A stretch of 64,000 bases of DNA, taken from Acanthaster planci. Taxonomy: Eukaryota. The notes below the pieces were generated by a model. That model saw only the letters and a list, made by a program, of their open reading frames with translations. It had not been told where the DNA came from and ran no database searches. This document shows, one piece after another, positions 21,996-60,389 of this stretch (within the stretch, counting starts at the first letter, position 1; each line of letters opens with the position of its first letter). The position numbers and the translations under genes were made by a program. Location: NCBI RefSeq assembly GCF_001949145.1, contig NW_019091360.1, positions 3,470,864-3,534,863 on the forward strand, given 5' to 3'.

Positions 21996-22091
21996 NNNNN
22001 NNNNNNNNNNNNNNNNNNNNNNNNNNNNNNNNNNNNNNNNNNNNNNNNNNNNNNNNNNNNNNNNNNNNNNNNNNNNNNNNNNNNNNNNNNN
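21996..22091. other. Assembly gap (96 N)
   Basis: Run of N. Confidence 1.
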
Positions 22092-23589: not shown

Positions 23590-25240
23590 ATTCTGGGTTC
23601 AGTTCTGCATCGAAGCGCACCCTTAAGACCTGTGAAATGATATAGAATGAACAACATGCAGTTATTGTCAATGTACAGTTCGCCGATTTCGTAATACTTT
23701 CATCATAACATATTAAAGTCAACAGTAGATACACACGTAAATGGATTAGGAATTTGCCCCCTCTTTAATGCTTTTAGCTCTAAGTCTACAATATCGAGTC
23801 GCTAATTAGCTGGTAACCGCTCACCTGAGTGGTTCCCGTCCACCTATCTCCAGTCAGTAGGTCGTATTTATAGAGCAGGTAATTACTTCCCAGCCACAGG
23901 CCTCCTTTATTGTCAACATTGATGTTGTCAACTGACGTGTGCATGTTGATTTTCTGGGAAACATTGTACAAAAGATGTCGAATTTTAAAATTTTGCTTAA
24001 CCTTTCTGGGCGTGTATCATTAGTGTATATAAGGAATTGCTGATATTGATTATAGACTGCCAGTACTATCATCGCTTTTCTGTTGATCGATTATTCAGTC
24101 CTTGTTTTTGATTCACGAGATAGAGAATTATTCACAAGACAATGCATTCATTGTGTATAAGTGTGACACTCAGCGTTCGTTTTGTTACTCGTTCCTCTTG
24201 CCCATTCGCAAAAGGGCCGTTACAAAAGTTGGGGAGTCAGGTTGGTGTAGAGGCTCTTCCCTTGCCTTACTCCACTGCGACCCGGGTTCGAATCCCACCT
24301 AGGTCAGCATGTGGATTGGGTTTTCAGTCCCTGCCTGACTCCATGGGTTTTCCGTGGCATATTTATTGTGGATTTTCCCCCACCTCTAAAACTGAACATT
24401 TCTTCATTGTCTTCTTAATTATAACTTTGTCCTGTAATTGGCGCTAAATGCGCTGTTGAATGAACAGATAAATAAATAAAAGTTGCAAATGTATAGATAC
24501 TGTTGCACCGCATAAATGATAAACATCACTTCAATGACATGTTTGTGTTTTTCAGATTTGAACTTGGCTTTCGGAGCTCCAATGAACCGCGAGTGTCCTT
24601 CGGATTTCTCTCAAAAACTAAGAGTTCAGCATCCATTAAACCCAACACGTAGATGAACCTACAGCGAACCTACAGATGAACCTACAGAATGGGGAAAAGA
24701 AACCTTAACATTAGTTAAAGATAAGCGAGAACAGACATTTATATTCCCCGCTATATACGGACTTGGTTTTAATCATTTTCTTTGCTCATTACACCAGTTT
24801 ATCTTCCATCAGGTGATCGGTTGATACTATCAGCATAGGCGAACCCACTGGCTACTTGCTCGGTCTTGGAACCGTCGTAGTAAGCCACTGTTCCCGTCGG
24901 TAGGCTTAGAGCGACCTCCAGAAGCCCAAAGCGACCCAGGCGAAGATCGTTGGTGACGTAAAACGTCTAGGCACTCATAGCTTTCACATCATTGGGTCTA
25001 GGAATGATGAATGAAATGACCTGCCAAGAAGTAGCAGTCTGTAATTTCTGTTCGGTGACTCGTGCAATTCAAGACCATCAATAAATAGGGTGAAAACAAA
25101 TCGGGCTTACGCAAAAATGTTGTCGTCAATAACCGTCTTCCGATGGTGCAGCGTTTCAGAATTGTGGTCATAATCAAACACTTCAATGGACTGCGTTCTT
25201 GGGGGCAGTGGCTTATGGACCACAAACAAAGTGACTATGC
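23590..25240 (-). pseudogene. PON-like: Paraoxonase pseudogene, copy D (exons 5-8 and the start of exon 9)
   Basis: Exon homologues 25111-25240, 24803-24997, 24568-24658, 23825-23953 and about 23590-23629. In-frame TAG at 24967-24969. Intron 6 donor is AT instead of GT (24801-24802), intron 7 donor is CC instead of GC (24566-24567). Exon 9 is cut after VLRVRFDAELNPE and exons 1-4 are absent. Confidence 0.92.
24231..24477 (+). mobile_element. tRNA-derived SINE in PON D intron 7, with target-site duplication
   Basis: A box TGGTGTAGAGG, B box GGTTCGAATCC, (TAAA)n tail, flanked by AAAAGTT at 24224-24230 and 24478-24484. The empty site is visible in copy C near 18810. Confidence 0.88.
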
Positions 25241-25885
25241 CTGATAGAAAGGAAAAAACTTAAATTATTTCATGTAGTTAAAACCTTTTCCCGTCAAATC
25301 AGGGACGGAAACTTCATTGTAAAAATGAAGTCTATTGAGAACCACCAGTTAGAGCTCTTTCTTAGGGTGTACCAACAGTGAAGCAGCGCATGCAAACCCG
25401 AGAGGTAAATGTTTTTATGGTTTATACGTCCGTTTGTTTATTGGTTTATTGGATGCTTTCCACCCGTTGATTGGTGGAAGAATGTACAGAGGCTGCCAGA
25501 TCAGAAATTCGGTCTTCATTTACAGAATTATCAATAAATTCTTTCTGAAAAAGAGAAGTATTTATGGATCTATCTGCTTGAATCATTAAAGCCCCCTTCA
25601 GGCCTTTTTTATGAACTCATGAAGTTACAGAAATTTTTCCCCAAACTGATTAACTCCCAGATCAGTTTAACTCACTATATTTTTAATATTGTACCTGTTC
25701 TCGTTTCACTTGAAATCCAGAGAACAAAGAACAAGTTTGTTTTCCACGATCATTCGTTTTTTGTAACAATATTAATTGTCAGATGTTTTCGAGTGCTTGC
25801 TTTTATTTCTATTTCATTCTAACTGACAAAAGTAGAAACGCTCGGTAAGTGACCAAAGTTCACCGCGTCCCTGGGAATTTCAACT

Positions 25886-26485
25886 TAATCCTTAATTATA
25901 GAGCTGGGCTATTTTGGCTCATCTAACACCCGGGGCGGATTCCGATCCCACCAGAACTCGGCTGCGGCTCTCTCGATTTTCGTGAAACGTCGCCTGCATA
26001 TAAAGAAACTCCATATCATTAAGACTGTGACGTTTGAACTCAATCAGACGTTTGTTGTTGTTGTTGTTACGGTAATTTGAAGTTCAAGGCTACATGGGTG
26101 CCAGCCTGCGTGCATTGAGCACCACAGCGGAAAAGTTTACATTCAGGCTGACCTGTCTCGGAAAAATGCAGGCTGCTTAAGAACGGTATGTTCAATTTTC
26201 ACCAAATTGATGTCAGAACGACTGCAAAATATTGCTAAGAAATCCCAGCTCCTTAAAAAAGGAAATGGTGGCAATACTGGTACAAATGGGGGGGGGGGGG
26301 GGGAAGAATTCCNNNNNNNNNNNNNNNNNNNNNNNNNNNNNNNNNNNNNNNNNNNNNNNNNNNNNNNNNNNNNNNNNNNNNNNNNNNNNNNNNNNNNNNN
26401 NNNNNNNNNNNNNNNNNNNNNNNNNNNNNNNNNNNNNNNNNGGGGGGGGGGGAAGCAATTCCGGCCCCGGTTCTTTTAGGGTTAA
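25886..26485. mobile_element. piggyBac-like non-autonomous element spanning an N gap
   Basis: Left end TTAATCCT...GAGCTGGGCTATTTTGG, right end GGTTCTTTTAGGGTTAA (TTAA boundaries). A related 5' piece lies at about 16190-16440. Confidence 0.45.
26313..26441. other. Assembly gap (129 N) between poly-G runs
   Basis: Run of N. Confidence 1.
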
Positions 26486-30841: not shown

Positions 30842-33800
30842 ATGATGGCTGCCAGTTATCGGAGAAGCAGAGGTGAACGGTATGCTTCAAATCTCAGCTC
30901 AACGTCAGGCATTGTAGAATACAGTTACGTCCATGACGCAAGTGGAACCGATTCCAGAAATGGTGGGGTCTACGCTGTACGCAAGCGTGAGTATGAGTTC
31001 TTTTCCCCAACAGGATGTTTTTATTGTTCCAAAGTTGACAACCATTTAGTGCATCAAAATGGATGATCTTATTGATTTTATGTCCTATAATATGCTAAAG
31101 AGGGACAGATTTCCAGGAATCATTTCATTTTAAAGTTTCAGTCAGTTTGTTGGCTTTCACAAATTTTCTGCTAGGATTGGAATGTCGGGGCCCTGATATT
31201 TTTATTAAATGGTAATTCATTTGGTCAATTTTTCTACATAAAGTGATAACCTATATTTTGTGGCCTTGAGACAAATGGTTCAGTTTAAGAAGAGTTCTTA
31301 ATTATTTTTGAAAAAAACACAGAACCTTTGTTCTACAGTGGTGCATTAGTGCAACAGTAAACCTGATTAGCCATATGTCTGTTGGCATAACTCCAGCCAT
31401 GCTCGTGTTTACACAGTGTCAAAAATAACCATTTGTAACCCAAGTAACATAAGCAGTGTCCATTACATTGTGCTTTAGTTTTGTCGACAGCCCTAAATCA
31501 TTGTTGTCAATGAAAATGCATTCCCTGTGCATGAATCATAAATATGGAGTGTAGGTGTCTCGATTTTTAATGCCTCAAGTCCAAGATCCCAACCTTAAAA
31601 ATAAAGTTTGTTTCCTTCCGGACCACTAACATCTTGGTTTGTGATTTCATCTTGCTTAGTGGGCTTGTAAAGAAGGGTATTAATTTTGGATATTTGACAT
31701 TGCCTTTAAAATAAATGTTTTTTAAGAAAACCACCACTGGTAAAAGACTAATTGTTACACCCGTTATCAGTCGACAGTATGTGCATAGTACGCTGCTTCT
31801 GGGTTAAATTTCAACCTAAACTGCATGGGTTAGTGTCAGGCATGCTATCGGTACCCTGCCTGAACACAAAAGGTTTTCGTTGCTGTGGAGTAAACACTGT
31901 ACATGTTTGTATGCACAGGTATGCCAGGTTATTTTCTTACTGAAGACCATCCAGTCAATTGAATTGAAAAACTTTGAGGAATTTGAAAAAAAAACTTGAT
32001 TGTGGAATGTTGATAAAAATAACAATTGCCTCCAACCCCTCTTCATTTGTTTAATCAAGGCTACTTGCACTTTGAACTTGAGGTTGTTGAACATGCTTTG
32101 TACAGTGTATGCAGAGCTTACATGTAGGTCAGAAAATAAAATAGTTCTGCTTCCAGTTTTCTGACTGACCTTAATTTTTTGGCACAAGCCTGAAATTATT
32201 ATCGATCGGCATTTAAAAAAGAATGAATTGAAAAAAAAGTTGATAATAAAAATTCCTGTCATCTGTCCCCCCAAAATGTCTCTCATCAACTTGTTTTTAC
32301 ATCAAAGACACTTGAATTCAAATGTTTGTCTACTTTAATTCACAACTTTTGAGAAGACATTGTTTCATGAGTTTCCTTTGCGTTTGGCTGTGAAAAAAAT
32401 GTGCAATGATGCTCAAATGCTCAATGCTGTGCTGGTTCCTGCTGCTCCACACTGCCATTGCTAAAGAAATCATGATGGCAATGTGGCAACCAGTATAGCA
32501 TCCCAGCCACATAGTGTTACCGTACATTATAAATAAGTAAAACATTGATGAAGTAAGAAATTCATCAACTTCATAATTCGCTATCATTAAACTTGATTTT
32601 GTCTGTATTATTTTCCATGCTCATGAATTGCTCATACTTGAACCAAGCCCGTTTCATCAAAATTTCTTGTTGCAAGTTGATGTTCATAATCCACCCCACA
32701 GATGCATCCTGCATGCATGGACATTTTTGGCCTGTTTCCAGTCGTGACTAGTGTTGTGCACAATGGTGTGCACAACCTGAATCCTCCATTATTTTAAGAA
32801 TTACAGTCGGTAAATATTTTTCACAGCAATCAATGCAAGTTTATATCATTTTTGGTGGCAATTATTTAATAGTTTATGTTGTGCAAATGGAAATGGTCAA
32901 GGGTGAAATTGGCATATAATTGAATATCCCGTGCAATCAGCACGCACAAAAAATTGCCAAAGATTCAAAATTTCTACCTTGCCACCCTATTTGAGAGGCA
33001 CGTATGTGTAATTGGAAGCAGAAAATTGTTTTTGATCTGCTTATATACATGTAAGTTTAAGCATTTTTTCTTTCACTGCCTAGAATACTTGCATTCAGTG
33101 ATTCCCTAAACCCTCACATAGAAAAAAGTCTGCAGTATGTATGTTGTGCAATGAAAGTCACCACATAAATGAATCGTTACGTTTAAACAAGACTACATTG
33201 CTATGACACTTTAAGGCATTTGTACTTGTAGCATCATGATATCACTTTAATTACATTACAGTTTCTAACTGATAAGTAACATTAATGTACTTAATTTTTT
33301 AATCGCTATCATCGTATCTGAGATTACCAAAATAAAATCGGGTTTGTCAAATATTGGTAATAGAGATGAACGTTGGACGCACCCTCTGTCCTAAAATTAA
33401 TGTAACATGTGATAACCACACACCATTGACAAAATCAACTTCATCTGTAGCTCTGAAATCCCTGAGGAGCTGTTGCATGAGACCTTGATTACAAGACCTC
33501 AGACACAATTATTGATGTACTTCCAGTTGCCTGTGTTTATCCTACCATATACAGCCCTCACCTTTCGGTACCAGATTTTTTTCTCTCGCTTGCTCCTAGC
33601 CTACATGTAACCTCTTACATCTGTTGCTGTGACTCGTAACATGGAATATGTCAACAGCTCTGCCTTCCTGGAGGATTGCATGCCTTTCATAGTTACTCTG
33701 GTTTGGTGACAGCACGTTACAGCCTCTGTATTCTGTCTTCCTCAGAGGTGGGCCATTGCTCGTTGGCTCTTATCAAAACCGTGCCTAGTCTTGAGTGCAC

Positions 33801-36800
33801 TGAGGGGGTTCTCGGTCCTTGGCTTTGGATTTCAGACTTGTTGGTGAGGCTGGATGTCTGGGCACAGCATGGAGACTAGATCATATGAACCTGATGATTA
33901 AGGCCTGGATTACCAGTGCCTTAGTGTGGTTCTTCCAACCACCCCCAGTCCATGCACTTCTCACTTTCGTCTCAAGATCAATACATCTTTGCTGTTTTTA
34001 TTTTCTCAGCTTGCCCTGCATAAAGTGATGTACATACTTATTAGTATTTCCCAGTTTGCCATGAGCAAGGGTCAAATTGAAAACTATGTTGAAGAAGATC
34101 ATTTATGATCAGCTGTTAGTCCTGAATTTCCTTTGTGGAGGAAATTGAGTTGTCGTGGGATTTTTGATATCAGCGTGGATTGCGTAGCATCAGAGTTATG
34201 GCTGTGTACGGTTGGCAACATAAGTCTAAGTCTGAATGCATCGGTGTGAAACTGCCAGGTAGGTTTAGTGTGATTATAATTCCATCCCTCCAACAACTTC
34301 CCTTGACCACACCCACCTCCATGTAATTCAATATCAGCATGCTTTTTGACATAAAATTCCATTTCTAGGCAAATACTGCTGTAGACATGGAAGAATTTAA
34401 AGTGCTTAACACCGAACCCTTATCCATTAAAATCTTACTCCTCGCCTTTGTAGATTTTGATAGATAAGGTGCATCAGAGTACATAACACCTCCCATGCTC
34501 TATGTTTACCATTGTGGGTTAGTATATGGATGTTGTTTCGGATATATTTATCATCAGTGGTACATGTACTGTGTGTAGGGCCTATGTACATGTACATTTC
34601 TGAAAGCTGATGGGCAATGTGCGGTTACATTACAAGTCTTTCCAGATTCCAGTGAGGGATCCAAAATTGGAAACGGAAATGAATGTACTGAATACCTCCA
34701 ATTTCTGCCACCTGTGGGATAGATCCAGGCAACAGGACTTTGAAAAAGTCAGTTTTTAGTTGGATCATACAAATTTGCCCTTCTTCAAATGTACTACATG
34801 TAAGTAACATGGTGTTGCATAAAGTGTGGACTGACTTAAATAGGTGTCCTAATTGTAAAGGTAAAATTAGGAAAACTTCCATTCAAGTCCTTTCAGTAAA
34901 TTCAGGTTTGTCTCCTGACCATTCTGTCCAAGCACGAGTTTATTTGATGGTAGGAAACTGAACAGTTGTTGGGAATATATAATCATGACCTCTGTCCTGA
35001 CCTTGGCTTAGGTTGTCAGTTTGGTTGGCACTCAGCTGATAGGTGGTCATACATCACCTGGCTTGGTTCATTATAATTTGTCAGGGTGAATAGGTGAAAA
35101 GCTTTGGCTATAAAAATAGGTTATGTAAAGTCTGCTGTCCTGGAAAGACCTGTGGTTTAAAGTGTTTTCTACCTGTTTGTTGTAGCAGAGAAAAATGATT
35201 TATATGCCAAGTGCAATTGATTGAGGTGTTACTGGTACACTTAGTGAGAAAAATAAAATAGTTGACAAACTGACTTTCCCATCAACCAACCATTGGAGAA
35301 TTAGCTTCAATCAATATTCTTGATATCAGATTTTGTGCCTGTCACCTGTTTTGGGCGTCTACTTTTCAGAAAATTTATTTGCTCGCCAACTCCACTTTTG
35401 AGTTGTTTGTTTCCCATGTGTACATCTTGGCAGAGTGACAAATTCCACAAAATTATTGACTTCTGAAATAAATCATAGCATACAAGGTATTTTGTTCCAG
35501 CCTCTTTGAATTTAAAAAAGCAACCGTCTTACCGTAAATCATTAAAAAAACAGATAAGAAGAAACAGTCAATGTTCATGTTGAAATATTTCTTTTAGCCA
35601 TCGTGATTATCCACACAAACAAACCCTAAAGTTTATACAGCGCCACATGTTCCCAGTTTCGATTTCTCTCCAGCACAAGGTAACTTGTCAGCCTCTTTTA
35701 GATCCTGCATTTTTGTCCAGTACCTTTGACCCCTGTACTCTGTGTATCCATTACAAGAAATGCCGGTTTGCTTTGTATTGTGGCTAATTCCTGTGGTACT
35801 GGTCATTACAATAATATGTAGTTATTGTTCCCAGGGGAAAGCAGGCCAGAGAGTTTTTGAGTCTTGCATGCTTCCCTCTTTACACCATCTAATAGAGTTT
35901 TAAGGGCTAGCATACATGTACATGTATACAGTATGTGGTTAAGAATATTTTTTTTTCACTTTTCTATCCGTGCTTAATAATATAAAAGAAAATCTGTATC
36001 CTGGTTCAGTCGGAATCTTTAATTTAATGAAATGCTGAGCACATTCATTTGGTACATGTACATGGATTTAGGCATGGATCCAGTCCCCTGTAAAAGTTCG
36101 TGTTTTGAGTAATGTGTAAAATGTACACTCATCTGTACATCATGTACATTTACAAGTACATGTATATGTACCAGTATGTGCTGAAATCATGCTCTTTGAT
36201 CTGTGTGGGTGTTAATGTACTTTTTCTCTGAAACAAAATGGTGAGAGACATAGAGTGTTCTCGGTTCTGAAAATAACCTTTGGACGTGTATTCTGACTCT
36301 GACTTCTTTAATTAAAGAAAATTTGTGTGATATTAAACTAAAATGTATTGTATGGCCATCACATATTCTAAGTTTGGAGTATAGACTTCTAAAAGCTCAG
36401 ATACCTTGTCAACGGCATACTTCTTGTTTAAAGCAAAATTCCGTCCGTATGGTGACCTTTACCTTCTGACCCCTCCTGTGTCATATAACTCAGGATTATA
36501 TCAAAAGCCAAAATGTAAATTACCTTCCCATACCATGCACTTTCAGCAGGCCCAGTCGATCATCATAAAAGCTCTGTACAGAAAATTTATGTATGGCCTT
36601 TCCAGCAGTTCTCTTTTTAGTGACTGCCTGCCATTTGCGTGTGTCGTCTCTTTGGTTCCATTTTATGCTCAAACTGGACTGAATGACCCAGGAAAGTTTT
36701 CTAGGCCTATGCGTACTTGTACATGTACATGTGGGTTCCTGTCAGGATCACAATGGGTAAAGTGGTGCTTGTCGGTGAACTATTGTAACTGAATTCCTCT

Positions 36801-39800
36801 ATTCTGTGAGCTTCAGGGCTCCATTTGAGGAAGCTCTCAAGGTGTAACCCATCTATCATTCTGGAGGCTTTGTGCATTATTTGACAGGAATTGTGTTCCT
36901 GGTCTCTGAAGGGCTTTGATGAAGGAGACACGAAGTGACCTACAGAACATAATGGTGTTGTGACAATTCACTACACTTGATGTCCAGAATCTTTCAGTCA
37001 TGATAGATTTATGTACATGATAGGTACATAACAATGTAAACTTCATGTACATGTCTGTCATTTACTCCTTCGAAATTAGTATTGGAATTTCCTTGCATTG
37101 TTCGTTCACGTCCTTCCAAATTCTCAAATGAATTGTTGGTTGGTTGATCCTCCAACATTCTAGTTATCAATACAGATTTAAGCAGATTTTCACATTTTTA
37201 CATTAAAATGGACCCCTTGTAATGCTACACACAATCCTTTAAAATACAGTTTGGAATTCTTGTAACAGACTAACGGACTCCACCGTCTTTTATACATACA
37301 TGTACATATCAATTTTAGATTTAATTATGGGGATGAGACTCACTAACCCGTTGTGTTCAAATATAATTAAATACCCTGGACAGTACAGGAACCTCATTAT
37401 TCATTTCTTACATGTAAATTTGTATGCAAATCCGCTGAAGCTTCATTTATCACAGGCCCATGCAGTACAGCAGTACAATGTACATGTAGTATTGGAAAGT
37501 CTGTTGATAATTGTTGGATTGTCATTCAAAGTGAATAAACAGTTAACATCCTATGCCTATATGGCATGACACTGGCATTCTGGATGCATAGTGTAGCTCA
37601 GATTCCTCTCAATAGGTTGGTCCACCAATGATTATTCTTGCCATTTCAATCTTTAACCCCCCTGTCTCTGGTTTAAATATTGAATGTTGACACAAGCCCA
37701 GCTTTTATTGTGCATCTCCAACAACTCACCAGTGTTGTACACCTAAGGTCATGGAAACTGCAGTGATATGCTAGTGTGGCTGTCTGCTAGCTTAGATCAC
37801 TATCTTCGATAAAATTGTGGTAGCGGCCCGAATGTAAAACATCTTATCTCTGCAAACATACTCCGGAGCAGCACTTTTTTGGTATCTAAGTTGTGAAAAT
37901 GACTCTGTTGTGCCATAAAAAATTCAAATACACTAAAATAAGGCATTGATTGAATGTTGAAAGAGAGAAAAAATGTATATACAAGTATTAAGAGCAAATA
38001 TGGTGCCATTTTCTTGGAGTTGTTTTGTCTGTGAAGAGTTTGGCTGCGTGCAAGGGAAGAAGCAAATATTGTTCAAGTTGGCTGTTCAGTATTTACGTAC
38101 ATGTATGGTACCATGCAACATCATTTCAAAGAAACTAAATGTCAAGTGCTTCACAAAATACATTTGTAAAATTACTGTCTACCATGTTTGTTTCCTGTGT
38201 GTGTACAATGTTAGGATTTAGTTGGAACCAAATGATGCAGGATAAGTCGGTAAAACGTTCACTGAATATTCTTTGACTGCCTGAACATTTTCTGTGTTGG
38301 CCTTCATGTACATGTACAGCGTGTAAATACTGGTATGGCTGTTTTTGTAGTCTGCATTTTATGTACATATTCTGTTGAATCAGTTGAACATTCTGATCAA
38401 CCTTGAATGCCATAAATTATTTCCTGTTGCCTCCAGCTGAGTGCTTAGCAAAAATATCCAGCCAGACTTAGCATGCCCCAGTTTAGCTTTATCAACAAAA
38501 GACAGTTGTTGTTTTGAACATGTTTGAAATTGTTCAGAGCAGACATGTATCTGTATGAAGAAGAAGGTGCATTAAGTATGTGTGGTTCTGAGAGGAACCG
38601 AGGAATAACTCATTCCCCGGGGAATGAGTTATTCCCCGGTTCTTCTCAGAACCACACATACTCAAGAAAGAGAATGATCCATGGTGTAACCGCAATCGTT
38701 TTACTCGTATAGTTCTTTCACCATGAAAACTTTCAAGTCTTAAGGTGCATTAAATTGACCAGTATCATTATTCATGTATGTAAATGAATGGCAGGTTGTG
38801 GCAAGGGTCTTGGCACATACTCGTCTGTAACTGTAAAATAATATTGAAGTGCTTTATTAGCCTACATGTGCTGACATGTACAATATAAAATTAGCTCACT
38901 TAATGCAGAGAACTTCAAGTGATTTGTTTGACTTTCATTGAAGACAGGACAGATGAGCAGTTTCTTGTGAGTGAGATTTGTAATCATTTTGTTATGGTTA
39001 GTGATTGATTTAGTGTACTGTTGTCTGACTTCTACTGACTTCTACATACATGCAAACTCCAGAAGTATAAACCACTTTTAAATTTTTTTTTACCCGCCAC
39101 AGATCCTGTCATGCAGGCTGTCCAAATATCGGACCTCCTCAAGCGAAGGATTGCTTTTCTCTCAGGTAAAACTCTAATTATTGTTTGAAACTCTGTCTCA
39201 CTTTATCGGGTGTTTTTGAAGTTCCTGTCTACAGGAAGTGTTGGAATGACTATGGGAAGTGTATTGAGGAAGTAGTTGAATCAATATACATGTAAGTGTA
39301 TTTAATCAGATTTGCAGATTAAAATGGGTTAAACAGTGTAATCCAGATAGTGATTCAGCCAATGCATCCTGGGGCGTACATGTACTTTGTACATCATTTA
39401 CGAACTCTTCACCTTGGAAAATACCAGTGCGGCTTTTAAGATCAGGACATTTCTAGTTACATAACCATGCAAACATTATTGTACTGTAGATTTAATTAAG
39501 TATTGTACTTTCATGAAAAACAGTTGGTGCATATGTAGATTTCAAATTGAGACATCAGACTCAAGCTTAATGTAATGCACCATTCCATCTGCAAAAAACC
39601 TACACTTTATATGTAAATGAGATTCATTTATATGTACATGTACCTGGATGCTTTGTTGCAGATAGTGCATTAATTCTTTAGCTATGCACGTAAACGTGTA
39701 CATGCATATAACCTGCTTGTAGTTTGCTGTGTTTGGTGTTTCGTTTTATGACCTGGAGATGCCAGTATCAATTAGGTTTTTTATTACATTTCTGAATCCA

Positions 39801-42800
39801 TGGTGTTGGTGGTCATTTTTCTTCACTAACTGCTACTAGTTATTATTATACTGGTATTTATGTACACATGTCACACTTCTTAACTGATATAAACTGATAT
39901 AAACTAAGTTTTTCATTCATGGCAGTATTTGTTAAACTAGTAATTTTTTGGACGTAGGAAATTGTGTTGGAATTTTCTTTCGATAGATTGATAAATTATT
40001 GGTTAGATGTCCGGAAATGATCTGCAATAATTTTTGCAAACACTGTAAAAGTACAAAGCCATTGGCCAGTTTGAAAATTCCCAGCAGTAATCCATGAAAG
40101 AAAATGACAATTCTTAATCTGCAAAATGGAGTCACGCTAACATAGTTTACAGAAATTTGATTCTTCTTTAGCAGATCTGTGTATACTTTGATACTAAAGT
40201 AACCCAAAAATAATACTTTCACATCCTTCACAATCCATCTTGAGGTTTGTGAGGTTTTTGCGAGATTAAGAAGAGTGCAGACCAGATCACCATCACTTTA
40301 CAGTCACATGATGTCCCTTGAAAGTAAAAGAATGTACCATTGGTGTCCTGCACTATGAAGATCTCTGCAGGGAAAAAAAATCTGTGGGAGTTAAAGTTCA
40401 GAAGAAAAATATTTCTGTTGCTGTATTGAAGAGAAAAGTTCAATCATTTGTATTTTAGTGCTTTGTTTGCATACCTGTACTTGTATGACAATGGACATAA
40501 TGTCTTCACCCACCGATATACTGTAGTTAGTCCATATTTCGCTACTATCAGTGTTTATTGTTGACTGTCTGTCAATGATTACAGGAGGCAAGGACAAGAG
40601 AGGCGGTCCCATCATTTCTTTTCCTACCCAATCCTCCGAGGTTTCTTTGGAAGACATTGCCACATGTGTGTCTTATCTTGCCACTATACCAAGGTGAGGA
40701 AATTCAACAAGTTTCTTTTTAAAGGAGTTGTGAAAACAAACAAATGAAATGTGACATTCCCTCCCAATAAATGTATGATATGAGCACCATAATTTAAAAG
40801 GAAAAGGAAAACCTAGGAAGTGGAAAAAGTAAATATAACAGCTAACCGTTAATCAGAAATGTTGATTATTAAAGTGAATGTAGATTTCTTTGAGAAAATG
40901 TGATCCAGTCAGAAAAATTCATAACTGATGGGAAAAAATTAAAATCAAACATTTATAACTAGTCGCAGCCCAAAACTTGTTCACTTATTTCTGTCTTGCT
41001 GTTCCATCTTATGGACTGCATTTGTTTTCACTCTATCATCAAATCATAAAGCACAGACTGCTTTAGACTAGGCTAGGGACACAATCAAAGATTGCTGACA
41101 TCTGGCTTACGGTCATGTTCCCAGTCAAAGCATTGCATGCATGTCTTGGGAATGTGAAATCTTTCCGTGGAATAAGGCATGTTTGTCACAGCTAGTCTCT
41201 GTTGTGACTGTTTGCTATGGGCATAGTTGATTCCTGGCTTATAAGTGCCTGGTGTAACGTGATCTTTTGAAGTCACAAGAATGTTTTTTGCTTTGAAATA
41301 CTTGTTCGTGATGTATGAAATTGTGTACATACTTTCTCCATACACAGTTGTAACTTGTACACAGTGAACAGGTGCCCCAAGTTTGGTCTACAAAAGTCAA
41401 CTTTATAGGAAGCAGGAGTACCATTTGTGACTGGTTGACATTAGGGAAAGTGCCTTTCTTGTACATGTCACAGGCACTTCTTTTCCCAATCACTGGTCAG
41501 CAAACTATTGAGGGGGTCATCCGACGCCTCATAATTCCAACGCCTCGTAGGTCTTACGCCTCATAAGGCTGATAAATGCATTTAAAAGTTCCATTTTTTT
41601 TGCCCATGGCATAGAGCCAACGCCTCAAAACATCCAACGCCTCGAAAGTCCGATGTTTGATTTGACGCTCGTTACGAGCATATGAAGACGGAGCTAGGAA
41701 CAAGACTGGTTCCCGGTTTCAAGTTTGGTGTACTATTTATGACACACAGCGTCGTGTCACACAGGCTGACACTCCTCCATGTTCCACAGTCTATTGCACT
41801 GACGCCCTGTGTTATAAGTCCGACACCTCATTGGTCCGATGTTGGATTTGTGAGGCATTGGACCTTGGAGGCATCGGAAAAAAAATTGCCCACAAAACCC
41901 AATGGCTCATTACTCTGACGCCTCATTAGTCCGAAAATTCGGACTTTTGAGGCGTCGGACCTACATGTATGGGGCGTCGGACTTATGATACGCATCCTAT
42001 TGTGGGGGCGCTAAACAGAACTCAAACAAGTTTGAGAATGCTAATGTGTTCTTTTTTACACTTGATAAGCAAATAACACTACCCAAATCACTTGATAAAC
42101 CTTCCTCTTTACAACATGCCTAAAATATGCTTGTTTGCTCGGTGTTGATAGACAGAGGAAATGTCTATGAAGGTCTTTACTTATTGTGCTTGTGTTGTGT
42201 ATCAATCACACTGGTAGCATAATAAAAAGACACTGTGGGGGTGATTGCAACCTTTTCTGACTGGTTTTGCTGTGAGGTTGCATCACATTGAAAAGAGTTC
42301 CTCACAATTGCAGTATTCTTCAACACTGGTATTTTCTAATGGTTACAACAACATGGAGCCATTAACAACACCTTGTCCTCGTCATTTTTTATCTTTTGAC
42401 ATACCAGTCCAGTAAGACACCCCACTGTGTTATTTTAAGACTTAACCCAGCAAGGAACTCTTAATGTACATGTTTTTTCTTCCCATACCAGTTTCCTCTT
42501 TACCCAATGGGGGACCAGCTTCAAAGTGGCATTTTTATTGTGCTTAGTACCAACAGTAGTAAAACGCGCCTGGGAATTTACTGTTCTGTTTATCAGTGTG
42601 ATTGCCTTGGACAGGCACACACTGTTTGCAGCAAGGTCACCTTTGAATGGAATAATTTGATAGAATCACAGGTTTAAGCGGCAAACCTAAATAAACAGTG
42701 TGGAGCTCTTCAATTTCAGTAAATTATAGACATTGCAGGTTTATCTGATTTCCAGTCTTTTGAAAAAGCCATTAGAAACAAAAATCATATATTATGCAAC

Positions 42801-45800
42801 TTAGATTAGAATAATTATGAAAATAATTTTAAGCTTATAAATTATTTTATATGAAAGATTGATTTAGAATAGAGAAATAAAAGTTACTTGAACTTTTTAA
42901 ATATATATAAGGAATACATACTATTTCTGGATCTCCCCATGTTTGAACCTGTTTATTTTGAAGAATTCATGACATATGACCATGAATCACCACTTTATAA
43001 ATTTTGAAGCATATATTACAGGTTGCCTTAGTTTGCCTCCTTGCATAATTTCTCTTCTGGTAAGGATTCTTATCTTCCCTTTTTGCTGCATTTTGATCTT
43101 ATCACATCTCAATCAGAGACAGTATGCCTCAGTGCATCAGCCATTAATTACCATGGCAATTCTTGTGTTCATTTCAGTGAGGAGGCAAAAGACCATGGCT
43201 ACAGCATCATTGCTGACATGCGAACGTCCACCTGGCAGTCTCTCAAAGCTTTCTTTAAAGTGCTCCAGGTAACAAGTTAATGTATTAACTGATTATTGTC
43301 ATATATCAACTTCCTGTTTCTCTATCCATGGATCCTGTGCTCGTGTGGTTTTGCCACAAGGTCAGAAATGAGACTGTGCCTTGCCATAACATGCATGATG
43401 TTGTTATGAATGCATAGCATGAGTGAATGATATAATCTGTCAAAGAGCATTAATGTGGAATACCAGGAGGCACAGCAATAAAATCACCTGATTCGAACTT
43501 GGATTTTTTGTGCAAATTTGGTAAGTTTGGTCAGAACAATTCAGATTCATAGAGAACTGGTTATTCTACTGTTACTTAACCATTTCATCTTGGTTAGCAT
43601 TGATGAACATGTCTAGGATTTATCTCATACAGCTGCCGAAACTGCAGTGTTTAATTGGTAAAATGATACCCGTCCATTGAAGCAAAGCTGGATGATAGCT
43701 TGTACATAGATTAAACTTAAATATCTTTGAAGCATTACAAGAAGAGGCTACATAAGTGTATCAAACTCATAATTTTAAGCAGGCAATAAAATCTTTTAAA
43801 AGAAAAAGTCCCAGCTGTAACCTAACATATCAGGTGATTTGACAGAAGTTAACAGATTCCATTTTTGACTTTTGTGTTTGATTTTTTTGTTAGGAATCCA
43901 TACCCAGTGGGATACACTCTGTGTACGTGATCAAACCAGATGCTTTCTGGGAGAGCAAGCGGGCTAGCCTCAGCCTGAAGAAAGACAAGCCTCAGTATGG
44001 GTTTGAGGTAAGCAGACTAAGCCTAAGCCTGTGGAATGTTATCAGCTGGATCACAGTCCTCAGGTCGCAACTTTGCCTGGGGAGATTGTACAGAATCAAA
44101 ACCAACAGTTGTAATTCCTTTTAAGTCTTCCTGTAGGTTTGCATGTAACAAATGCCTCTGGCTTTTTTATCTCATTTGTTTTTTTTTCACAGACTCTGAT
44201 GTTATCCAATGTCTCCAAGCTGACAAAGTTTATTGATGCTAGAGAACTCACTGAAGACTTTGGTGGAACTTTGCCATACAACCATAACGAGTGGGTTCAG
44301 AACAGAATTGTAAGTACATGTACTGTGAGCTTGAAGTGCATTCCTTAAAATCGCCTTGGAACAGACAATTTTTTCCTTCATTAATTGATCTTTAGGTATT
44401 CAGAAACTGTCAACAAAACTCTTTCAAATTTTGTAGAATATGTATAGAGACTTTATCTTTGAATCTGTAACTTCATTCCAAGAAGTTGTTGCGATGTTGT
44501 GATCAATTTCCATTTCCATATCTTATTGTTTCTGCAGGACTTTGAGAAATTCTTGAAGGATTCAGAGGTGGTTCAGCATCGTTTTGACCAGGCAGATGAG
44601 GAAGTACTGTACAGACGACGAGATGAGCAGCTGACTCCAGAAGATCTCCTGAGAAGGCAGAGAAGGCTTCGCGAGGTGGTCATCAACCAGCCTAGCAGTG
44701 TCTTGCAACTTGGTAGGTTCGAGAAGGGTTACTAGTCAACTTGTGATGGTCTAGTTCATTGAAGATACTTGTATGCATGGATATATCTATGTGATGGCAT
44801 CCTTTCTAGTATTTTCTGTTCACAGAGTTTGTATTAAAGGTTTATTTTGATTTCATATGGGGTATTTTGCCCTTCACTGACCTGTATTCATAAACATTTT
44901 GTACTCTGTACTAAGTACCAGTGCAATGTCCTAACCACTCGGCCACAAGTCTTTGCATCGGATGGCCAGAGTGTAAGTCAAATGAGCAATGCAGGCACAA
45001 TGCGAAACGGTGCAACAAGAAAAATGATACACTGTGTCTCTTGAAAGGGTGCAGCTGTGTATTCTTGAGCTTGAGATGAAATACTCAGCATTGTTTTAAT
45101 ATTTATTCCTATCCACTCTTTATGATTGTTGATTTCATACAGCACTGGTAGATTAGGGTTAACTTATTCCGCAAACTGTTGTTCTGAGATTTGGAAGAAT
45201 CTTGTGAATAATTCCATCTTCAGGACATGCATTATTGAGACGTATCAAGGAGGACAGTGAGTCTGGTTTCCGGCGCAACTCCAACGAAGGTCTGACGGAG
45301 GACCAGGTCAGACTCAAGGGCCAGCTGGAGCAAGTCTTGGAGGAGCTCCAGGAGAGGCAGAGCAAGCTGAAGATCTACCTGAGTGAGAAGGACAGAGAGC
45401 TGGGGGTAAACATGGACCTGAGTGACCTGGAGACAGGAATTAAGAAGGTAAAGGGGAAGATCAAGGAACTTTGACATAGTTAGGTTTCAGGTATTGAGGT
45501 TAAAATGAGAGATTTCTTTTGACTTAAATTTTTTACCCCCTAAAATATTTTGACAAGTGTAATACCAGTGGCCCTTCTAAATCGTCAAACCAAATGAGAT
45601 GTAAAATCCCAGTGTTAAAATCTTGTTAACTCTAACAGTTCTGCATACAATTTGGCTTGCAATACTCACTACTACAAAATACCAAGTAGTAGCCTGAGCC
45701 TGAAGGACCTAGCGCTACAAATTACCACTTCTGGCTAGGGCACCCTCCATTGTTACTCGTACAGAGAACAATAAAGTTGTGCATTCATAGTGCCAGAGCA

Positions 45801-48800
45801 CAGTATGGTCCATTCTCTTATCTATTATATTTTATGGCTTCAGTGACCAATAAGATTATATCCTCTTACAAGCGACAGTGTGGAATACTACATTTTACAC
45901 TAAATAGTACTTTGTAGTATTCAGGACTGTTTAGGGTTTATAAAGATTAGACTGGTGCAAGTTGCTTACCCACAAGAATGTCCTGAAAAACACATTTTAA
46001 AAGCAGGAAGAGGTCCAACATAATTATTTTTCCTTACTAAATGGTTCTATTATTTCAGGATCTTTTAACTCAACGCCATATGCCTATTAAGTCAACTTCC
46101 AGAACCTTTTTTTTTGGGGGGGGGGATATTTATGTAGCAGAAGTGAGTTAACTTTATGTGTGTGATGACTGTTTTCTTGTTCAGGTGGTTGATTGGATTG
46201 TTGGTCCCGGTGAGAAGCTCTTGGCATCACAGGTTGACATTGGGGACTCGCTGGCCGCTGCTGATCAACTCAGGAGGGAGCATGAAAAACTGGAACTGAA
46301 ATGCACTGTGAGTCAAGAGAAAGTCCGCCAACAGTCAGGTTCCCGTGGAAGCTTTTCTAAGAAATGAACGGATTAATTGCAATGCGGCTTTAATACGGGC
46401 GATTCACAATACAGCGCATCACCTAGAGTTTGCTGCAGATAGGCCACTTTTCAAGTTTGTGGTTGACACATAATTGGGGATATTTGATTGATTGAGGAGT
46501 TCCCTGCACAACACAAAACCATCATTTGGACTACCTAACACCCACTTGCAATAAGCAATTTTGAATTTTCAACCAAGATGAACAAACATTTGGAAATATT
46601 CAAGTTTTCCACGCGCAGCGCAGTTAGTGAATGAGACTTTGTTGACTATTTATCCCACAAGCACTGAGAAAAGGCCTCTCTGTGGCAACCTCTAGATGGC
46701 ACACTGCATTGTGAGTTGCCAGTATTGCTGTTGCCCAAAGAGTCATTTCATGAACCTCATTATTAATGGCTCAGAACACGAAAGTGTTTGATCTTTACAG
46801 TTACAGGTTTTTGAAGCCATCTTGATTATATTTGGAGAATCAGCTTGTGAAATGTTTTGGGCCTTGTACTTGTGTAATTGTTGAAGTTCCAGTACTCATT
46901 TGATTGGCCCTTGTTCAAGAAACGGTCAAGATTGGCCGCAGGGTCAAGAAAATAATACTCCAAATATTATCTTCAGGAGATGGAATTGTCTTCAGTACAC
47001 TTTTTGTCTGTTATTTTCGCAGTTAACAGACCATTTGATAAGAAACATAACAGCCATTGTTCTTCTCGATTAGGACACCTACGGCAACTTTGCTGAGTTG
47101 AGACATGTAGCAGACAGCATGATCAAGCAGGGTCACCCCAGGGCTGATGACATCAGTGCCCAGAAAGAATTCATGGAAACTGTCTGCCGGAGTTATGCCT
47201 CCAGACTGGAGAAAAGAAGGAACCTGTTGATCTGCTCTGTACGCTTCCATCGTCTGGCAGAAGAGGTATACCTTCAACCCTAACCCCTTAAAAGCCTCTC
47301 TGAATCTGCCAAAATTCAACCCAGTGCACATTCCTGTGGCACATTTATTGGGCTCAGATGGAATGAGTCAGTTGGGTCTTTCAGACCAGCAAGGCCAATC
47401 GGGAACAGAGTACCTTACATCACACCAGCTGAGAAACATTTAGTGCATGTGAGTTGATGTAGGCTGCGCTGACACGGCTGACCTTCTGTTGCTGATTGAT
47501 GTTCTTAAACGACCTTTAACGTGCTTCATTTTGAGTATGTGCTGTTAAACTGGCTGATTGGCACACTCATTCTTTACAGCAAGCTGGAAGACCATAAAGT
47601 GTGGAAGCTACTGAAAGAAGGCAAAAGAAAGCTGTGTCAGATTTGGGTTAATTGGGAAGGCTTAAGGTGGAGTTGTAATCTGGTGACAAGTTAGTCACAC
47701 ATCAACTTTCAATTAAGTCTTACACTTTTTGTTTGAGTTTTATTATTCCTTATTCATCCCAATTTACCTCGATACTTGTGACCTGATTTATGATAACACT
47801 TGTGATGAACTACATACATTAGTGAATGGCTGCATATTCACCTCACAGTTGGTGACCATTTTGTACTTCAATTACACCCAAGTCTTGTCATATCACCAGG
47901 CACATTTTAATCAGTAAAACTACAGATTACAGATATAAATTATTTAACCTTGTTTTACGGTTATTGTGTTTTGAACTAGTGCTTTGGTAAGATGGACATT
48001 CTTCTAGAGCTGTGTGTGACTGAAATATCCATTGAGACAGTCGAGATGGTTGAGATTGCCTTGAGAGAACTGACAGAGCAATGTGAGGCAGTGGGTAAGT
48101 CCAGTTAGCTATTGCAAGAAGTTGTTTCCCATGATTGTGTACTTTATATTAAATGTCATATTTATGTGAATGATACCATGATTTTCCTTCCTGCATTGTT
48201 TTGGGTTCAAAAACTGTTCAGTGTTTTTTACGAGTAGTTTGGTTTTGCATTATTCAGAAATACTGCAAGTCTTTTTTTTTAAATATTTTGTCGTCCGAAG
48301 CCTTTGCAGCAGAGGGAAGTAAGGAGGAAGGTCACTCCCTCCTGAGCATGATGTCTCTTCTGGTCAAGAACGCCTTTGGCAAGGACATCACGCCCAACTA
48401 CACCAAGCAGAAGGACCATGTCGATGAACTCCTGGCTGAACTGGAGGGGCGCAAGGCACGATGCGATGAGATGTCCGACATGAGGAAACTCAAGCTGCAG
48501 CAGATCTTACAGCTCAGGACATGCGAAAGGGACGCTGATCAGGTGGGTGGGAGGGGGTTGTTTGAGTTTGATAAACATCATATCAAATCGTGCTTTCTTT
48601 GTACACGATCTCCTTCAAAAGAGAAGGTCGACAGTTGAATGGCATTCATGCTGTTCACCCAGCAAAGACTCCATTTGGAGACCCCAGGGATTTGTGCACA
48701 TTCGTACGAAATTTGCCAGCACTCATTGCCGTAGACACTCAATCCACTCAATGTGTGTCATGTACTTACCTGATGATACGGTTTGAGGTAATCAAGTGCT

Positions 48801-51800
48801 GTCACTTTGGTATGTGGAGTTCGTATCAGTGTGGCGACTTGCTGATTTCAGAAAACCCCAATATCTGCCTATAAAAACCTAGAAAACTCTAGATTTACGC
48901 AGTCACATGCACGTGTTGTTGTTTCAGTATTTCTAACAGGTAAATTTCATTTACAGTTTGTTGACAGTGGCAATGCTGATCTGTAGGCACTGTCACTTCC
49001 AGTGGTGGTAATGTCAATCCAACCCCCTGATCATTTTGTCTTGCTGTAGGCCATAGAGTGGCTGCAGGAATTGCTGCAGGTGATGCTTTCACAGCATATC
49101 GACATTGGCCGCTCAGCAGCAGAAGCTGAAAACCTGCGTAAGGAACACAACAAATTTGAAGACACCGCCAGGGTAAGTGTTAGTTCTTTCTAAAGAATTT
49201 ATATTTGCAAGTTGCCATTGCTTCAGGTCCAGATTCCATGCTATTGTTTCCCCAAATATATCATATGGATGGGATGTGTTTCAAAAACAGGTTTATCCAA
49301 AGTGAGTATTTCTGTAGAAAAAGGGAATTTGGAACCCTCTCTCTCCTTGCATCCTGATAAGAAGAGACGAGTAGTGCAGCCTTTTGTAAGGCACAAGTAT
49401 TGGGACATTCTCTAGTCCTCTTCTTCGTTAAATAAACTCGTCTCGTTTTCTTCTTGTCTTGTGCTCAGGGCACATACAACTATGGCAAGGAACTTCTGAG
49501 TGCTGCCCTCGTGCTGAGACGATCCCTCCGTTTTGACCCTGAACCCAACCACGAGAAAGCCCAAATCCTGGAGAGAGCCTGGAGGAGGTTCTCACAAGGT
49601 CTTGGAGAGAGGGCTTCCAGGCTGTCGGTGTCGCACATGTTCCAGCGAAATGCTGAGAGGGTAAGCTTTAAGAAAGTCATAATCACCACGATATCTTCAC
49701 TGAATGAAGTATGAACGGAAAGCACATACATTTGCTCAAATTCTTTCTTACAAAAGTTAAGAAATGGGTGTTTTTCACTTCATGTGGTTAATTAGACACA
49801 ATTCATGAATGATAATGGTAGTGAGAAATAGGTATGTGGTAATATGGCCCAATTTACTTTCACATGACTCATGGAGTAGTAATAAGTTGCATTATCCAAA
49901 CCCAGCATAAGGTTGATACTCTTAGAGTCCATGCTGTTAACATTGACCATTCCATAAAAGATAGACATTATCTTATCAATTATTGGAATCTTAATTGCCT
50001 GTAAGAATTAGGCTCAAGCTGAATCACATAAAGCTAAAATGCTCTTCCACAAATCATGAGCTGATTGGCTTCTTCTTCACAGTTGGTTGATCAGATGGAC
50101 AGGATTTGCCTGGAGCTTGCTCCCCAGATCACCTCCTCTGACCCTCACACCAGCCGCAGACTTCTAAACGCTTACAGCCCACGACGTGACTCATTGTTGA
50201 GGGAGTACGGAGATACCATGGCCATGGGCAAAGCTTTGCTGGATCGCATGGTACTGCCTGTTCTCTCACCTGACAGGTAAGGGCAAAAACTGGAGCCAAT
50301 GTCATCGAGTTTACAATTAATATACTGAGACTCTGCAAAATAGCAGGCAGTCACAGGTCCTTCCTTAAGCCTTTTCCCAAGGTTTGAATTTGTGAACAAA
50401 TGAAGAAATTGCTGCCTTCAGCGTCATATCATAAGCTTTTTTTTTTCCTTACTTGTATTCGACAGGTAACAATGGCTTCTATGCAAATCTTTTCTGCACT
50501 TTGTAGCTTTTTGCACCGCATGTTTGCACAGCATCCTTTAAATGAATCTGGAGTCATCTTTATATGCTTTTGCTAAGTTGCATTTCATTGAGCAGGGATT
50601 TTGGAATTAAAATCATCAGGAATTGTAAGTGTTGATGAACACAGTGCCCCATCTCACTGAAGTCCTGAAAGATGTAATTCTACTGTTTATCATGAACCTG
50701 AAAGGATTTATTTTTAAAAAGACCAAAGGTCTCACTTTTATATGATTTCACTGCAGATGTGTTAAAGGGAATGGATTTTTTTATGGCATTAGGTTGTTGA
50801 AATCGTAGGATGGTTAATTGAAAAATTTTAAGAAAAGCAGTTAATGCAAATTCAAGAAAATGTTTATACACTTTTCTTCTGGTTTTTCCTTTTTTTTGTA
50901 CCAGAACTGTTCGGTCTCCTAGCTCCAGTTTTCCTGATGAGCTGCAACCACAGGTCAACAACATCCGTCAGAAATTGTCTGAGCTAGAGGCCAAAAAACG
51001 AGAGATGGACAAAATCTGGGGGCTTCCAGTCAGCTCACCCGAGTGGCAGCGGTCTGGATCTTATCGGTCCATCCCTGATTGGCAGGAGGTCACTCAAAGG
51101 GAAGATGTGATGGAACCGGTGACTCGGACACGACAGGAAGGCAGCCAGATGTCACCGAGCAGGAGAGTGCCATCGTCTGAGAGACTGGATCCCAGACGAG
51201 TTGCCTCTCTTACTGGAAGAATGCCTCAGAGTAACGGACGGATGGGTCCGGGACTGGACAGGATGGATACATCCCCAAGTAGACCCTACGGACAACACCC
51301 AGGTGCTTCAGACAGGTCTCCTCAAAGGATGACCTCACCCCATGATAGCTTGTCTTCCCCCCACAATCGAGTGTCTTCCCCTCACGATCGCATGTCTTCC
51401 CCCAACAATCGCATGACCTCTCCTCATGACCGTTCTGCTTCACCCAGTGCAAGAATAGCCCCACCTGTCAGGGCAACTGCTCACCCAGGTGCTGTGGACG
51501 AACCCATCCGCCCAGTGGCTGTCAGCCAGGTTCAGACAGCCTCTCCTGCATTCCAGCCACCACCACCTAACGGTAGGATGTCTCCTTCCCCCACTGAAAG
51601 AGTCAGTAGTCAGTCGTCTGCACCACAGCTACAGAGGAAGGATACAGCAGAAGATGAAGCGATGAAAAAGCTTGAGGAATTTGAAGCCTTAGTACATGAG
51701 GTAAGTGACAAAAGCTCTGTCTATAGACTCCTAGCAGGAACATGAGATGACATTATTTTGCTATTGACGGCAGTCGAGATTAAGTTAACAAGGGGATTTT

Positions 51801-54800
51801 TCTGTGAGAGTTGAGCAATGAAATGACTCGGAGTATAGTACAGCACTAAACACAGCATAATCTCCATTGTAAGTTGAGCACCCTGTCAATACAAAGCCAA
51901 TCAGTGTTGGCGATGACCATTGCAAGACCAGTCTCAAGACCACTCATGACAGTGACCAAGAAGTGCTGATGTTGCAGTTCACTTTTATTATGAATCCAGA
52001 CATTAGGTCTTGTTTCGGTCTTGTGATGTTTATATGGGTTCTTGTAAAGGTTTGAAGGAGTCTCAACTACGACATTGGAGCCGATCATCATGTTCATCTG
52101 TGAAGCATAATGGCCTCAAAACTGACAAGATGATTTTGTCCAAATCTGGAAAAAAGTTTAATAAGTCAGTGCTCTTTTACATGTGCATGTGAGTAATTTG
52201 TTGAGTATTCAAAGGGATTTAATGGAATAAGGAATTGCATAACAATTTTTTGGTGTAGAGCATCATTTGGTTTGGTTTGTAGTAATTCTCCATTTTGGCC
52301 CTGTCACTGAAAGATTCATGTTTAATGTAGGCATGCCTTGTGAGATGGTTGGAACAGGTATTAGTGGTTACAGTAGGTCTAGATTTTTCTTGCTGGACGT
52401 GGATCTTGTATTTGTCGCTAATCTGTCCACACATTCTACTATTACAGCGCATTCCCACTTGAATTGGGAAAAGGTGGATCTGAATAACCCAGCATGTTGG
52501 TGTAATCGCTATCTTACCGCAATGAAACCGCAAGTCGCGTTCCCACTGGCACTTGATCCACCTGTCAGATGGTAATGTTGAGCCCAAAGGTCACTGAGTT
52601 CGGTATTGGGCATGTGCTAGCTTGCTGAGCACGCGCTCTGTGGCAGTGTGGCATGCAGGGGCGGCATGTGTGTGACCTTGCGGTGTTTTGGGTGCGGAGT
52701 TCTACCATGGAGGAATAAAACATGGTTCTACTGACGTGACGACCTTGAATCGGACCGAATGTTCAGCCTAGTACGTTGTCTCTTCAAACTTTGCTTCCAT
52801 TTTTGATATTCTGTCACACGCTGCGGGCTATACGCTAACATGGAATTAGTTTTTGATGGAAAGCAAGTGAAATTACACAAATGAAAAATTTGAGAAATGG
52901 ACGAATGCGCAATGAAAATTGTGAAAGGGCAAGGTACACATTGCGGCATGTTAAAAATTTCACATGAGCTACACGCCAAAAAACGTATTTCTTTGTTCAT
53001 CCGACCGTAAAAGTTTTGCGCCACTGGACGGATGTAGGCAGGTCAAATTGCCGGATCAGATCCACCTTTTGCGTTCCCATCTGATCGTGATCTGCCAATT
53101 GCAGGATCTGATCTACCAATTGGGGGATCTGTATCCTGCTCCAGAGGAGGATCAAGAAAGGTGGATCTGATCCTGATCCACCTTATAACTGTTAGCATTC
53201 CCACTACACACAATTGGGGGATCTGATCCACCAATTGGGGGATCTGATCCGGCAATTTGGCAAAAGGTGGATCAGGTGGAACGGGCTGTTACATTATCTA
53301 CTGTACAAAGTGGCTGCATGCCCTGCCGCATAAAATAATGCTGCTTGGCCATTTGTTATGGTTAGATGTGTGTATGTATGCCTTTGGAAAATAGTCATTC
53401 AGATTTCTCTTCTGGTGAACACAACATTAAAGATCCTGCTCATTTGTACATTGTTTGAATGAACTGCTCCAGTCAAACACATGAGTGCACACATACATGT
53501 ACATGTGGAATGCACATGTCTATTTGTGCATGTGACAATACTATGTAATAAGCTTGAGTGCTTCAATAGAAGGCCCCTTGCAAATCTTTTGGGTCAATAT
53601 TACCGACTGCTTTCACCAGAGCGGTTTGTTTAATCTCCTAATCAGCATGACATCTATATTACATGTACATGTAAACCAGTATGGTCTCTTGTGTTGTATG
53701 TTGGAGCAGGTCTACACTGATGGAGTCAGTTCAGAGAACGTGATCCAAGATTTCAGGTTTCAAGATAAAACTGTTCCTACAAAAAAAATTCCCTCCTCTT
53801 CAACATACATTTGATCAAATACTGACAGTTGGTGGCGCTATTCCAATCAACTGCACAAGTTTTTTAGAACCAATCGACATCCACATCAAGTGGTGCCCTG
53901 CAGTTGATATTGGAGTAAATGGATTGTAAATCTGTTAAAAGACTTTTGCAGAAATAGCGTATCATTAGGATTTAAGATCTTAAGTGATTTATGAGTAAGT
54001 AGAACCATCTAAGATTCTTAGATTCTTAATAGATCAGTCAACTTTTTTCATTTCCAGTGGAAATTTCCTCATGAAGGACACATCCTGTGTTTCATTAGAA
54101 TTCCAGGATGTCGGGGTTACGTAACTTAATGGAATTTGAGACTTCTCAATAAGTAAATCTTCCTCTTTGCCAACTAATCAGCCCATTGCTTTATTTTGGA
54201 ATATTTTTCTTGTATCGAACTGGTTGAATTCTTTTGTATTTTTATATTGTCAAGGAATTCCTCCTTGTGCAATGCTCTTTTTTCTTGTGATACGGGATGT
54301 CAAACGGTAAATACAAAGGCTTCAGAATTATTACCTGAAGTCCAAATGTTTGGCCTCAGCCAGGCCATCTTATTAATAAACATTCCAGAGAAACCCAACT
54401 CTTTAGCTCTTTTCATGCCTATCCACCCTTCATGAATAATGGTTGGTCCCGCCATTGACACCAGAGTCAATTGGCAAACACAGCCCAACAAACTGAAAAT
54501 TGGCAAGCTGGTGCTTTGCAGAGAGACTTAACAATCTGCTGTGGGCCTGCCAAGGAGTATAGCTATAGCAAGTCATGAAACAAGAGCACAGAGAGTGAAA
54601 ATGGAACACCTTCAACTTGTGCAAATCTAGGAGAGCTCCATCCTTGCTGTATTGGTGTACCACACTGTGCTTGTGTTTGTACCATCACATCAACACCGAG
54701 CTGTATCATCCCTCCCCCCACTCCATCAGCCAATCAGGGACAGCACAGCACTGGTCTAGCTAAATATGGCTTGGCCTCCCCACTAGGAGGGCAGCTTGAC

Positions 54801-60389: not shown

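Follow-up and report, generated by a model that had tools for sequence, protein, structure and literature searches.

The closest described systems to the locus reported here are those of the titin family. An ancestral SESTD1-CCDC141-TTN gene, named 'connectitin', has been proposed (Hanashima et al. 2025, PMC12198301), encoding one SEC14-spectrin-Ig protein that is described as whole in cnidarians and placozoans and as hypothetical for bilaterians, in which the gene 'further diversified into three genes'. That paper cites spanning transcripts only for CCDC141-TTN and zormin-sls and leaves the conserved synteny without explanation; the word 'echinoderm' is absent from its main text. The human SESTD1-CCDC141-TTN array resembles the present locus in order, orientation and domain order (PMC12198301, PMC12657953), but in human SESTD1 and CCDC141 are given as two distinct genes, whereas here they are spliced together in frame. 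The Drosophila series CG15822-zormin-sls has the same three-part order, and zormin and sls share transcripts (PMC12198301, PMC12657953), but CG15822 is treated there as a gene of its own. KALRN and TRIO likewise combine SEC14 with spectrin repeats and produce shorter forms from internal promoters (PMC12198301), but they are paralogues that continue to DH-PH, in contrast to the fused homologues of the present gene that were examined. As to function, mouse CCDC141 binds nesprin-1 through its N-terminal repeats and titin through its Ig domain, and zormin of the fly is located at Z- and M-lines (PMC12657953).

The window analysed here is a stretch of 64,000 nucleotides from Acanthaster planci (contig NW_019091360.1, positions 3,470,864 to 3,534,863), and all coordinates below are those of the window. 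It contains two spliced forms that share exon 60267-60389 and which, with a probability of about 0.85, represent the likely two-promoter 5' end of an echinoderm connectitin (titin-family) gene. Both splice joints are present in RNA, the frame is open, the upstream domains are of SESTD1 type and the start of the short form matches an acorn-worm titin-like protein and an amphioxus spectrin-Ig protein. The likeness to connectitin lies in a SEC14 head followed by unbroken SESTD1-type and CCDC141-type spectrin repeats, and the difference in that here the SESTD1-CCDC141 joint of a bilaterian is found in RNA and is accompanied by an internal first exon. The general idea is in print (PMC12198301), as an earlier note made from the sequence of this stretch had supposed it might be, and public gene models already contain the fused frame; the additions made here are the RNA evidence from a bilaterian, which runs against the three-gene split, and the internal first exon, which shows how such a split could come about. 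A search of titles and abstract openings found no literature report of a SESTD1-CCDC141 splice, subscription studies of sls and of amphioxus connectin lying outside its scope. The features of the two forms are as follows.

30842..30986, plus strand: predicted start exon of the long form, coding from ATG 30842, in-frame stop immediately upstream
39103..44309, plus strand: SEC14/CRAL-TRIO-type region, exons 39103-39165, 40585-40693, 43178-43268, 43894-44007 and 44193-44309
44538-44712, 45224-45447, 46185-46307, 47074-47265 and 47980-48094, plus strand: SESTD1-type spectrin-repeat exons, first five
48310-48542, 49050-49172, 49469-49660 and 50083-50276, plus strand: SESTD1-type spectrin-repeat exons, last four
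50905..51700, plus strand: last SESTD1-like exon, 796 nt, open, with a GAG|gtaagt phase-0 donor
51701..60266, plus strand: intron spliced out in the long form, 8566 nt, GT-AG, joint seen in RNA
54873..55130, plus strand: alternative first exon of the CCDC141/zormin-type form, ATG at 55047, 28 codons, phase-0 donor at 55130
60267..60389, plus strand: shared exon, first spectrin repeat of the CCDC141/zormin part, 123 nt, 41 codons, phase 0-0, Trp at codon 4

Long form and the junction between 51700 and 60267

The long form is a model of 17 exons (30842-60389, plus strand) that joins 3129 nt into 1043 amino acids with 0 stops, every intron being GT-AG, and the earlier claim that the SESTD1-like spliced frame is free of stops thus holds over the whole model. 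Its alignment with Glandiceps SESTD1 starts at residue 14, and the presence of an acceptor at 30821 points to a further exon upstream that would be non-coding. The CAG CAG at 48310-48313 forms a tandem acceptor at which the frame is kept with either choice.

Eight of 23 listed RNA runs were examined, comprising five raw runs (about one fifth of each) and three contig sets. The earlier note had proposed a single transcription unit and a search for reads across 51700>60267; these were found in four of the five raw runs, from two studies, with 2 reads in X14, 3 in X15, 3 in X16 and 4 in X17 (12 in all), and the joint is also present in a contig of X1, one of the three contig sets and from a third study. 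It was not seen in X11, X2 or X3, and since X11 barely covers the exons of the gene the absence of joints from that run says little. Of the 11 introns from exon 6 to exon 17, at least 8 have RNA joints, at a depth that is low throughout (1-4 reads per joint per run). For introns 1-5, of which the examined stretch took in only intron 5, no RNA joint is among those listed, and this part of the model is predicted from homology. No single read or contig in the eight runs extends from the SEC14 exons to exon 17.

Exon 50905-51700 ends, as had been noted earlier, at a phase-0 GAG|gtaagt donor, and exon 60267-60389 is of phase 0-0. Exons 9, 13 and 17 share a length of 123 nt, a phase of 0-0 and a Trp at codon 4, so that exon 17 is built like the internal repeat exons of the gene. 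Exon 50905-51700 runs from the end of the conserved part through about 209 residues rich in Ser, Pro and Arg to a conserved helix of 17 residues, which is the start of the next spectrin repeat. In a profile built from 25 spectrin repeats, none of them at the junction, the joined peptide occupies positions 2-47, whereas exon 60267-60389 alone aligns from position 13; the earlier proposal that the joined exons rebuild the start of a spectrin repeat is borne out in extent, with a small gain in score (17.4 against 16.9 bits). In the homologues from crinoids and amphioxus, too, Pfam has a repeat lying across this junction. Of the 17 residues that lead up to the donor, 9 are identical to those of each crinoid, against 2 of 40 farther upstream, and a conserved helix lying after an unconserved stretch fits selection on the joined repeat.

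The low-complexity linker itself (51020-51650, about 209 residues; S 17%, P 15%, R 12%) contains short Ser-Pro repeats and is much shorter or absent in the amphioxus and Lingula models; it could be flexible and phosphorylatable.

An alternative first exon and the short form

It had been noted that 60267 begins the next recognisable internal exon after 51700. This stands: neither tblastn of six homologues nor a splice-site scan (with crude matrices that missed several true exons too) turned up a further internal exon in 51701-60266 or in 60390-64000. The earlier note had missed, however, an ATG-bearing first exon with its coding part at 55047-55130, which lies within the intron and is spliced to 60267. 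A transcribed leader begins at or before 54873, with contigs over 54873-55047 and 54923-55130. The joint 55130>60267 was found in contigs of X1 and X2 (two of the three contig sets) and in one X14 read, with sides of 30-40 letters and a flag of 'between: not known'; it is not among the joints listed for X15, X16, X17 and X3. A cassette exon at 55047-55130 was considered and rejected, there being in-frame stops upstream and contigs that remain unspliced for 120-170 nt upstream of the ATG.

The peptide of this first exon is conserved. Against the amphioxus protein P0028 it scores 66, a value reached by 0 of 1000 shuffles; among 3792 segments of the window it scores best, and the match stops at the same junction. 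Compared with five N-termini, among them those of a weevil 'CCDC141-like' protein, an acorn-worm titin-like protein and P0028, it shows 9-13 identities in 21 positions, and the arthropod protein P0053 carries the same peptide. A HMMER search with the shared exon returned 38 hits, mostly short single-exon ORFs with the same boundaries; three of them (Saccoglossus XP_006823021, the weevil 'CCDC141-like' protein and a 2519-aa spectrin-Ig protein) open with the first-exon peptide and another is a fused crinoid model, while P0078, for which there was no matched stretch, was left out of account. The short form is 62.5% identical over 64 aa to XP_006823021, a 'titin-like' protein of 6732 aa with 30 Ig domains and a P/E/V/K content of up to about 50% near its end, in which a simple pattern search found no kinase or Fn3 motif. 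The accession numbers of XP_006823021 and of the Sk-SESTD1 of PMC12198301 are consecutive. All this points to the intronic exon being an old CCDC141/zormin-type start, and two spliced entries lead into one shared exon.

The same shared exon, with the same two upstream partners, occurs in Saccoglossus (XP_006823021) and amphioxus (XP_066263903, XP_078700697, XP_035660906 and CAH1249860), and in B. lanceolatum a fused model and a short-start model are both present. The hemichordate and amphioxus models are automated predictions (named kalirin-like, MYLK or uncharacterized), whereas here both joints are in RNA.

Elsewhere in the SESTD1-CCDC141 intron, repeat pieces at 56200-56780 have a very high RNA depth with loose ends, from reads of other loci, and a perfect 48-bp palindrome lies at 56731-56778. 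A MEF2-like match at 54370 is one of 11 in the window and has no weight as evidence.

Homologues and alternative readings

The upstream half is of SESTD1 type, as had been thought from the sequence. The SESTD1-type spectrin repeat PF24915 matches 48312-48542 with 56.8 bits (cut-off 27, E 3.4e-15), and the model is 49-51% identical to hemichordate SESTD1 over about 780 aa, the alignment with Glandiceps SESTD1 being continuous (50.6% over 774 aa). A Pfam scan of 13 window pieces gave no match for 12 of them, including four of the five SEC14-region exons, scanned singly; homologues have PF13716 at the equivalent of 39103-44309, and in Glandiceps SESTD1 it lies at 81-198. By eye, the SEC14 region is nearer to the SESTD1 than to the TRIO rows in supplement 2 of PMC12198301, including a longer loop before the FE motif. 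A tree of 16 rows, without Trio rows, places the model as sister to two crinoids (98/97), in agreement with the deuterostome host that had been supposed. The name CCDC141 for the downstream half is a putative assignment and rests on invertebrate proteins so named, on the DUF7799/Spectrin_7 layout common to the homologues and on the Atlas cluster labelled 'CCDC141' (mostly Chordata), which ranked third for homologue segments (0.94 and 0.95) behind spectrin/kalirin/SESTD1 clusters. No named vertebrate CCDC141 was among the hits of the homologue searches or of the HMMER search with the shared exon. The N-terminus of human CCDC141 is presumably similar.

The junction is crossed in seven automated predictions that bear other names (P0021, P0024, P0004, P0025, P0018, P0031 and P0033), from Anneissia, Antedon, Lingula, Tubulanus and three Branchiostoma records, and thus from four phyla, and it would appear from these models that the SESTD1-CCDC141 fusion is not special to this animal. 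The amphioxus model XP_078700697 holds SEC14, SESTD1 spectrin, DUF7799, Spectrin_7 and I-set in one protein, and that of Tubulanus runs from SESTD1 repeats on to I-set domains. P0033 (XP_035660906), which is the 'Bf-SESTD1' of the PMC12198301 supplement, already reads across the junction, which falls at residue 1015 of its 1268. For B. lanceolatum, one annotation gives a fused model and a second a split pair whose accessions are consecutive. Thirteen other SESTD1-like models, also automated predictions, are without the shared exon; several of these stop at about this donor, and several of them end a few residues past the Val after the junction helix, as read-through of the GT donor would give. 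The earlier view of a single transcription unit is upheld by the junction reads but is incomplete, in that the CCDC141-like half has a first exon, and probably a promoter, of its own and that lophotrochozoan and amphioxus models are fused too.

One alternative to a continuous gene is that there are two separate genes as in vertebrates, SESTD1 ending at the stop reached after translation of 14 residues past the donor (51743-51745) and the joined reads being occasional read-through of little function. This is improbable. It draws on the existence of a separate first exon for the CCDC141-like half, on AATAAA motifs at 52714 and 54375, on the SESTD1 models of Glandiceps, Saccoglossus, B. belcheri and Patella, which stop at about this donor, and on the treatment of bilaterians as having three genes in PMC12198301. 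RNA from X15 points the same way, with depths of 2.4 and 0.8 in 51722-52108, just beyond the donor, exceeding the exon depth of that run, and may reflect a transcript form that ends inside the intron; X15 also covers many other intronic bins. However, the depth in this bin is 0 in X16, X17 and X3, the joined reads of X16 and X17 (3 and 4) are about equal to the local depth, the donor fits the consensus perfectly and has the same phase as the acceptor, the preceding helix shows conservation, and the joint recurs in the models of four phyla. Still less probable, to the point of being very hard to sustain, is that the gene is a Trio/kalirin orthologue, for which SEC14 with many spectrin repeats would be the normal single-gene layout and nothing would be fused. 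NCBI names the fused crinoid and amphioxus homologues 'triple functional domain protein-like' and 'kalirin-like', the sole PDB match of the Glandiceps homologue is the kalirin Sec14 domain and the top Atlas clusters are mixed kalirin/SESTD1. Against this are set the PF24915 match and the naming of the best homologues as SESTD1, the match of P0005 to the Sk-SESTD1 row and the identity of P0033 with the Bf-SESTD1 accession in PMC12198301, and the resemblance of the short form to titin-like proteins and not to Trio. Moreover, the Pfam lists of six fused homologues (P0018, P0021, P0024, P0025, P0031 and P0033) contain no RhoGEF or PH family, and two fused homologues reach Ig domains.

A different question is how far the unit extends. 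It is unlikely, though clearly less so than either of the foregoing, that the gene comprises SESTD1 and CCDC141 only, stopping after the spectrin rod, with the titin-type Ig exons forming a separate echinoderm gene. Neither of the two fused crinoid models (1569 and 2141 aa) reaches an Ig domain, and nothing was found past exon 17 in the window. On the other hand, the Anneissia model stops inside the rod that the Antedon model continues, and in acorn-worm, amphioxus, nemertean and chiton models the CCDC141-like repeats lead into Ig domains. Were the unit to stop after the rod, the SESTD1-CCDC141 fusion would stay and only the link to titin would go.

Proposed expression, significance and neighbouring genes

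SEC14 domains bind lipid. Under the two-promoter reading of the locus, an upstream promoter would give rise to a protein consisting of SEC14, SESTD1 repeats, linker and CCDC141 rod, and the intronic exon, from a putative promoter of its own, would give the rod headed by a short conserved peptide that replaces the first turns of the helix. Both forms are predicted to continue beyond the window into more spectrin repeats and then Ig domains, as in the acorn-worm, amphioxus and nemertean models. The long protein would thereby carry a lipid-binding SEC14 head and extra spectrin repeats on the same rod, which may tie the rod to membranes, and the short protein would be the zormin/CCDC141-like sarcomeric form. 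The continuous state is probably ancestral, and vertebrate SESTD1 and CCDC141 may well have arisen by fission after the appearance of an internal promoter, the joining splice then being lost.

An in-frame, RNA-supported joint offers a direct reason for the synteny of SESTD1 and CCDC141, namely that the parts still share exons. The locus would represent a natural half-way stage of gene fission, in which a probable internal promoter is present while the joining splice is in use, and a titin-family protein headed by a lipid-binding domain is predicted from it. Entries that databases call Trio-like, kalirin-like or MYLK are likely to be misnamed. The published model is refined by these results; no new kind of system is opened. 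A broader and tentative proposal, to which we give slightly less than even odds, is that a full connectitin mRNA, from SEC14 by way of the SESTD1 and CCDC141 spectrin rods to titin-type Ig/PEVK, is made to this day in echinoderms, amphioxus and lophotrochozoans, along with a shorter form from an ancient internal promoter, the vertebrate and fly fissions being separate and late. If this were so, each fission would need little more than the loss of one splice donor.

The remainder of the window is occupied in part by tandem paraoxonase/arylesterase-like genes on the minus strand (6300-25250), directed away from SESTD1, in which PF01731 was found in three of the ten ORFs scanned. Assembly gaps (N runs) at 21996-22091 and 26313-26441 both lie outside the SESTD1-CCDC141 gene model. 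Last-exon peptides that resemble one another lie at about 6300, 11680, 18070 and 23490, so that four or more copies are probably present, and the last exons at 11683-11910 and 18066-18398 encode an identical peptide for some 57 residues, which may reflect recent duplication or gene conversion.
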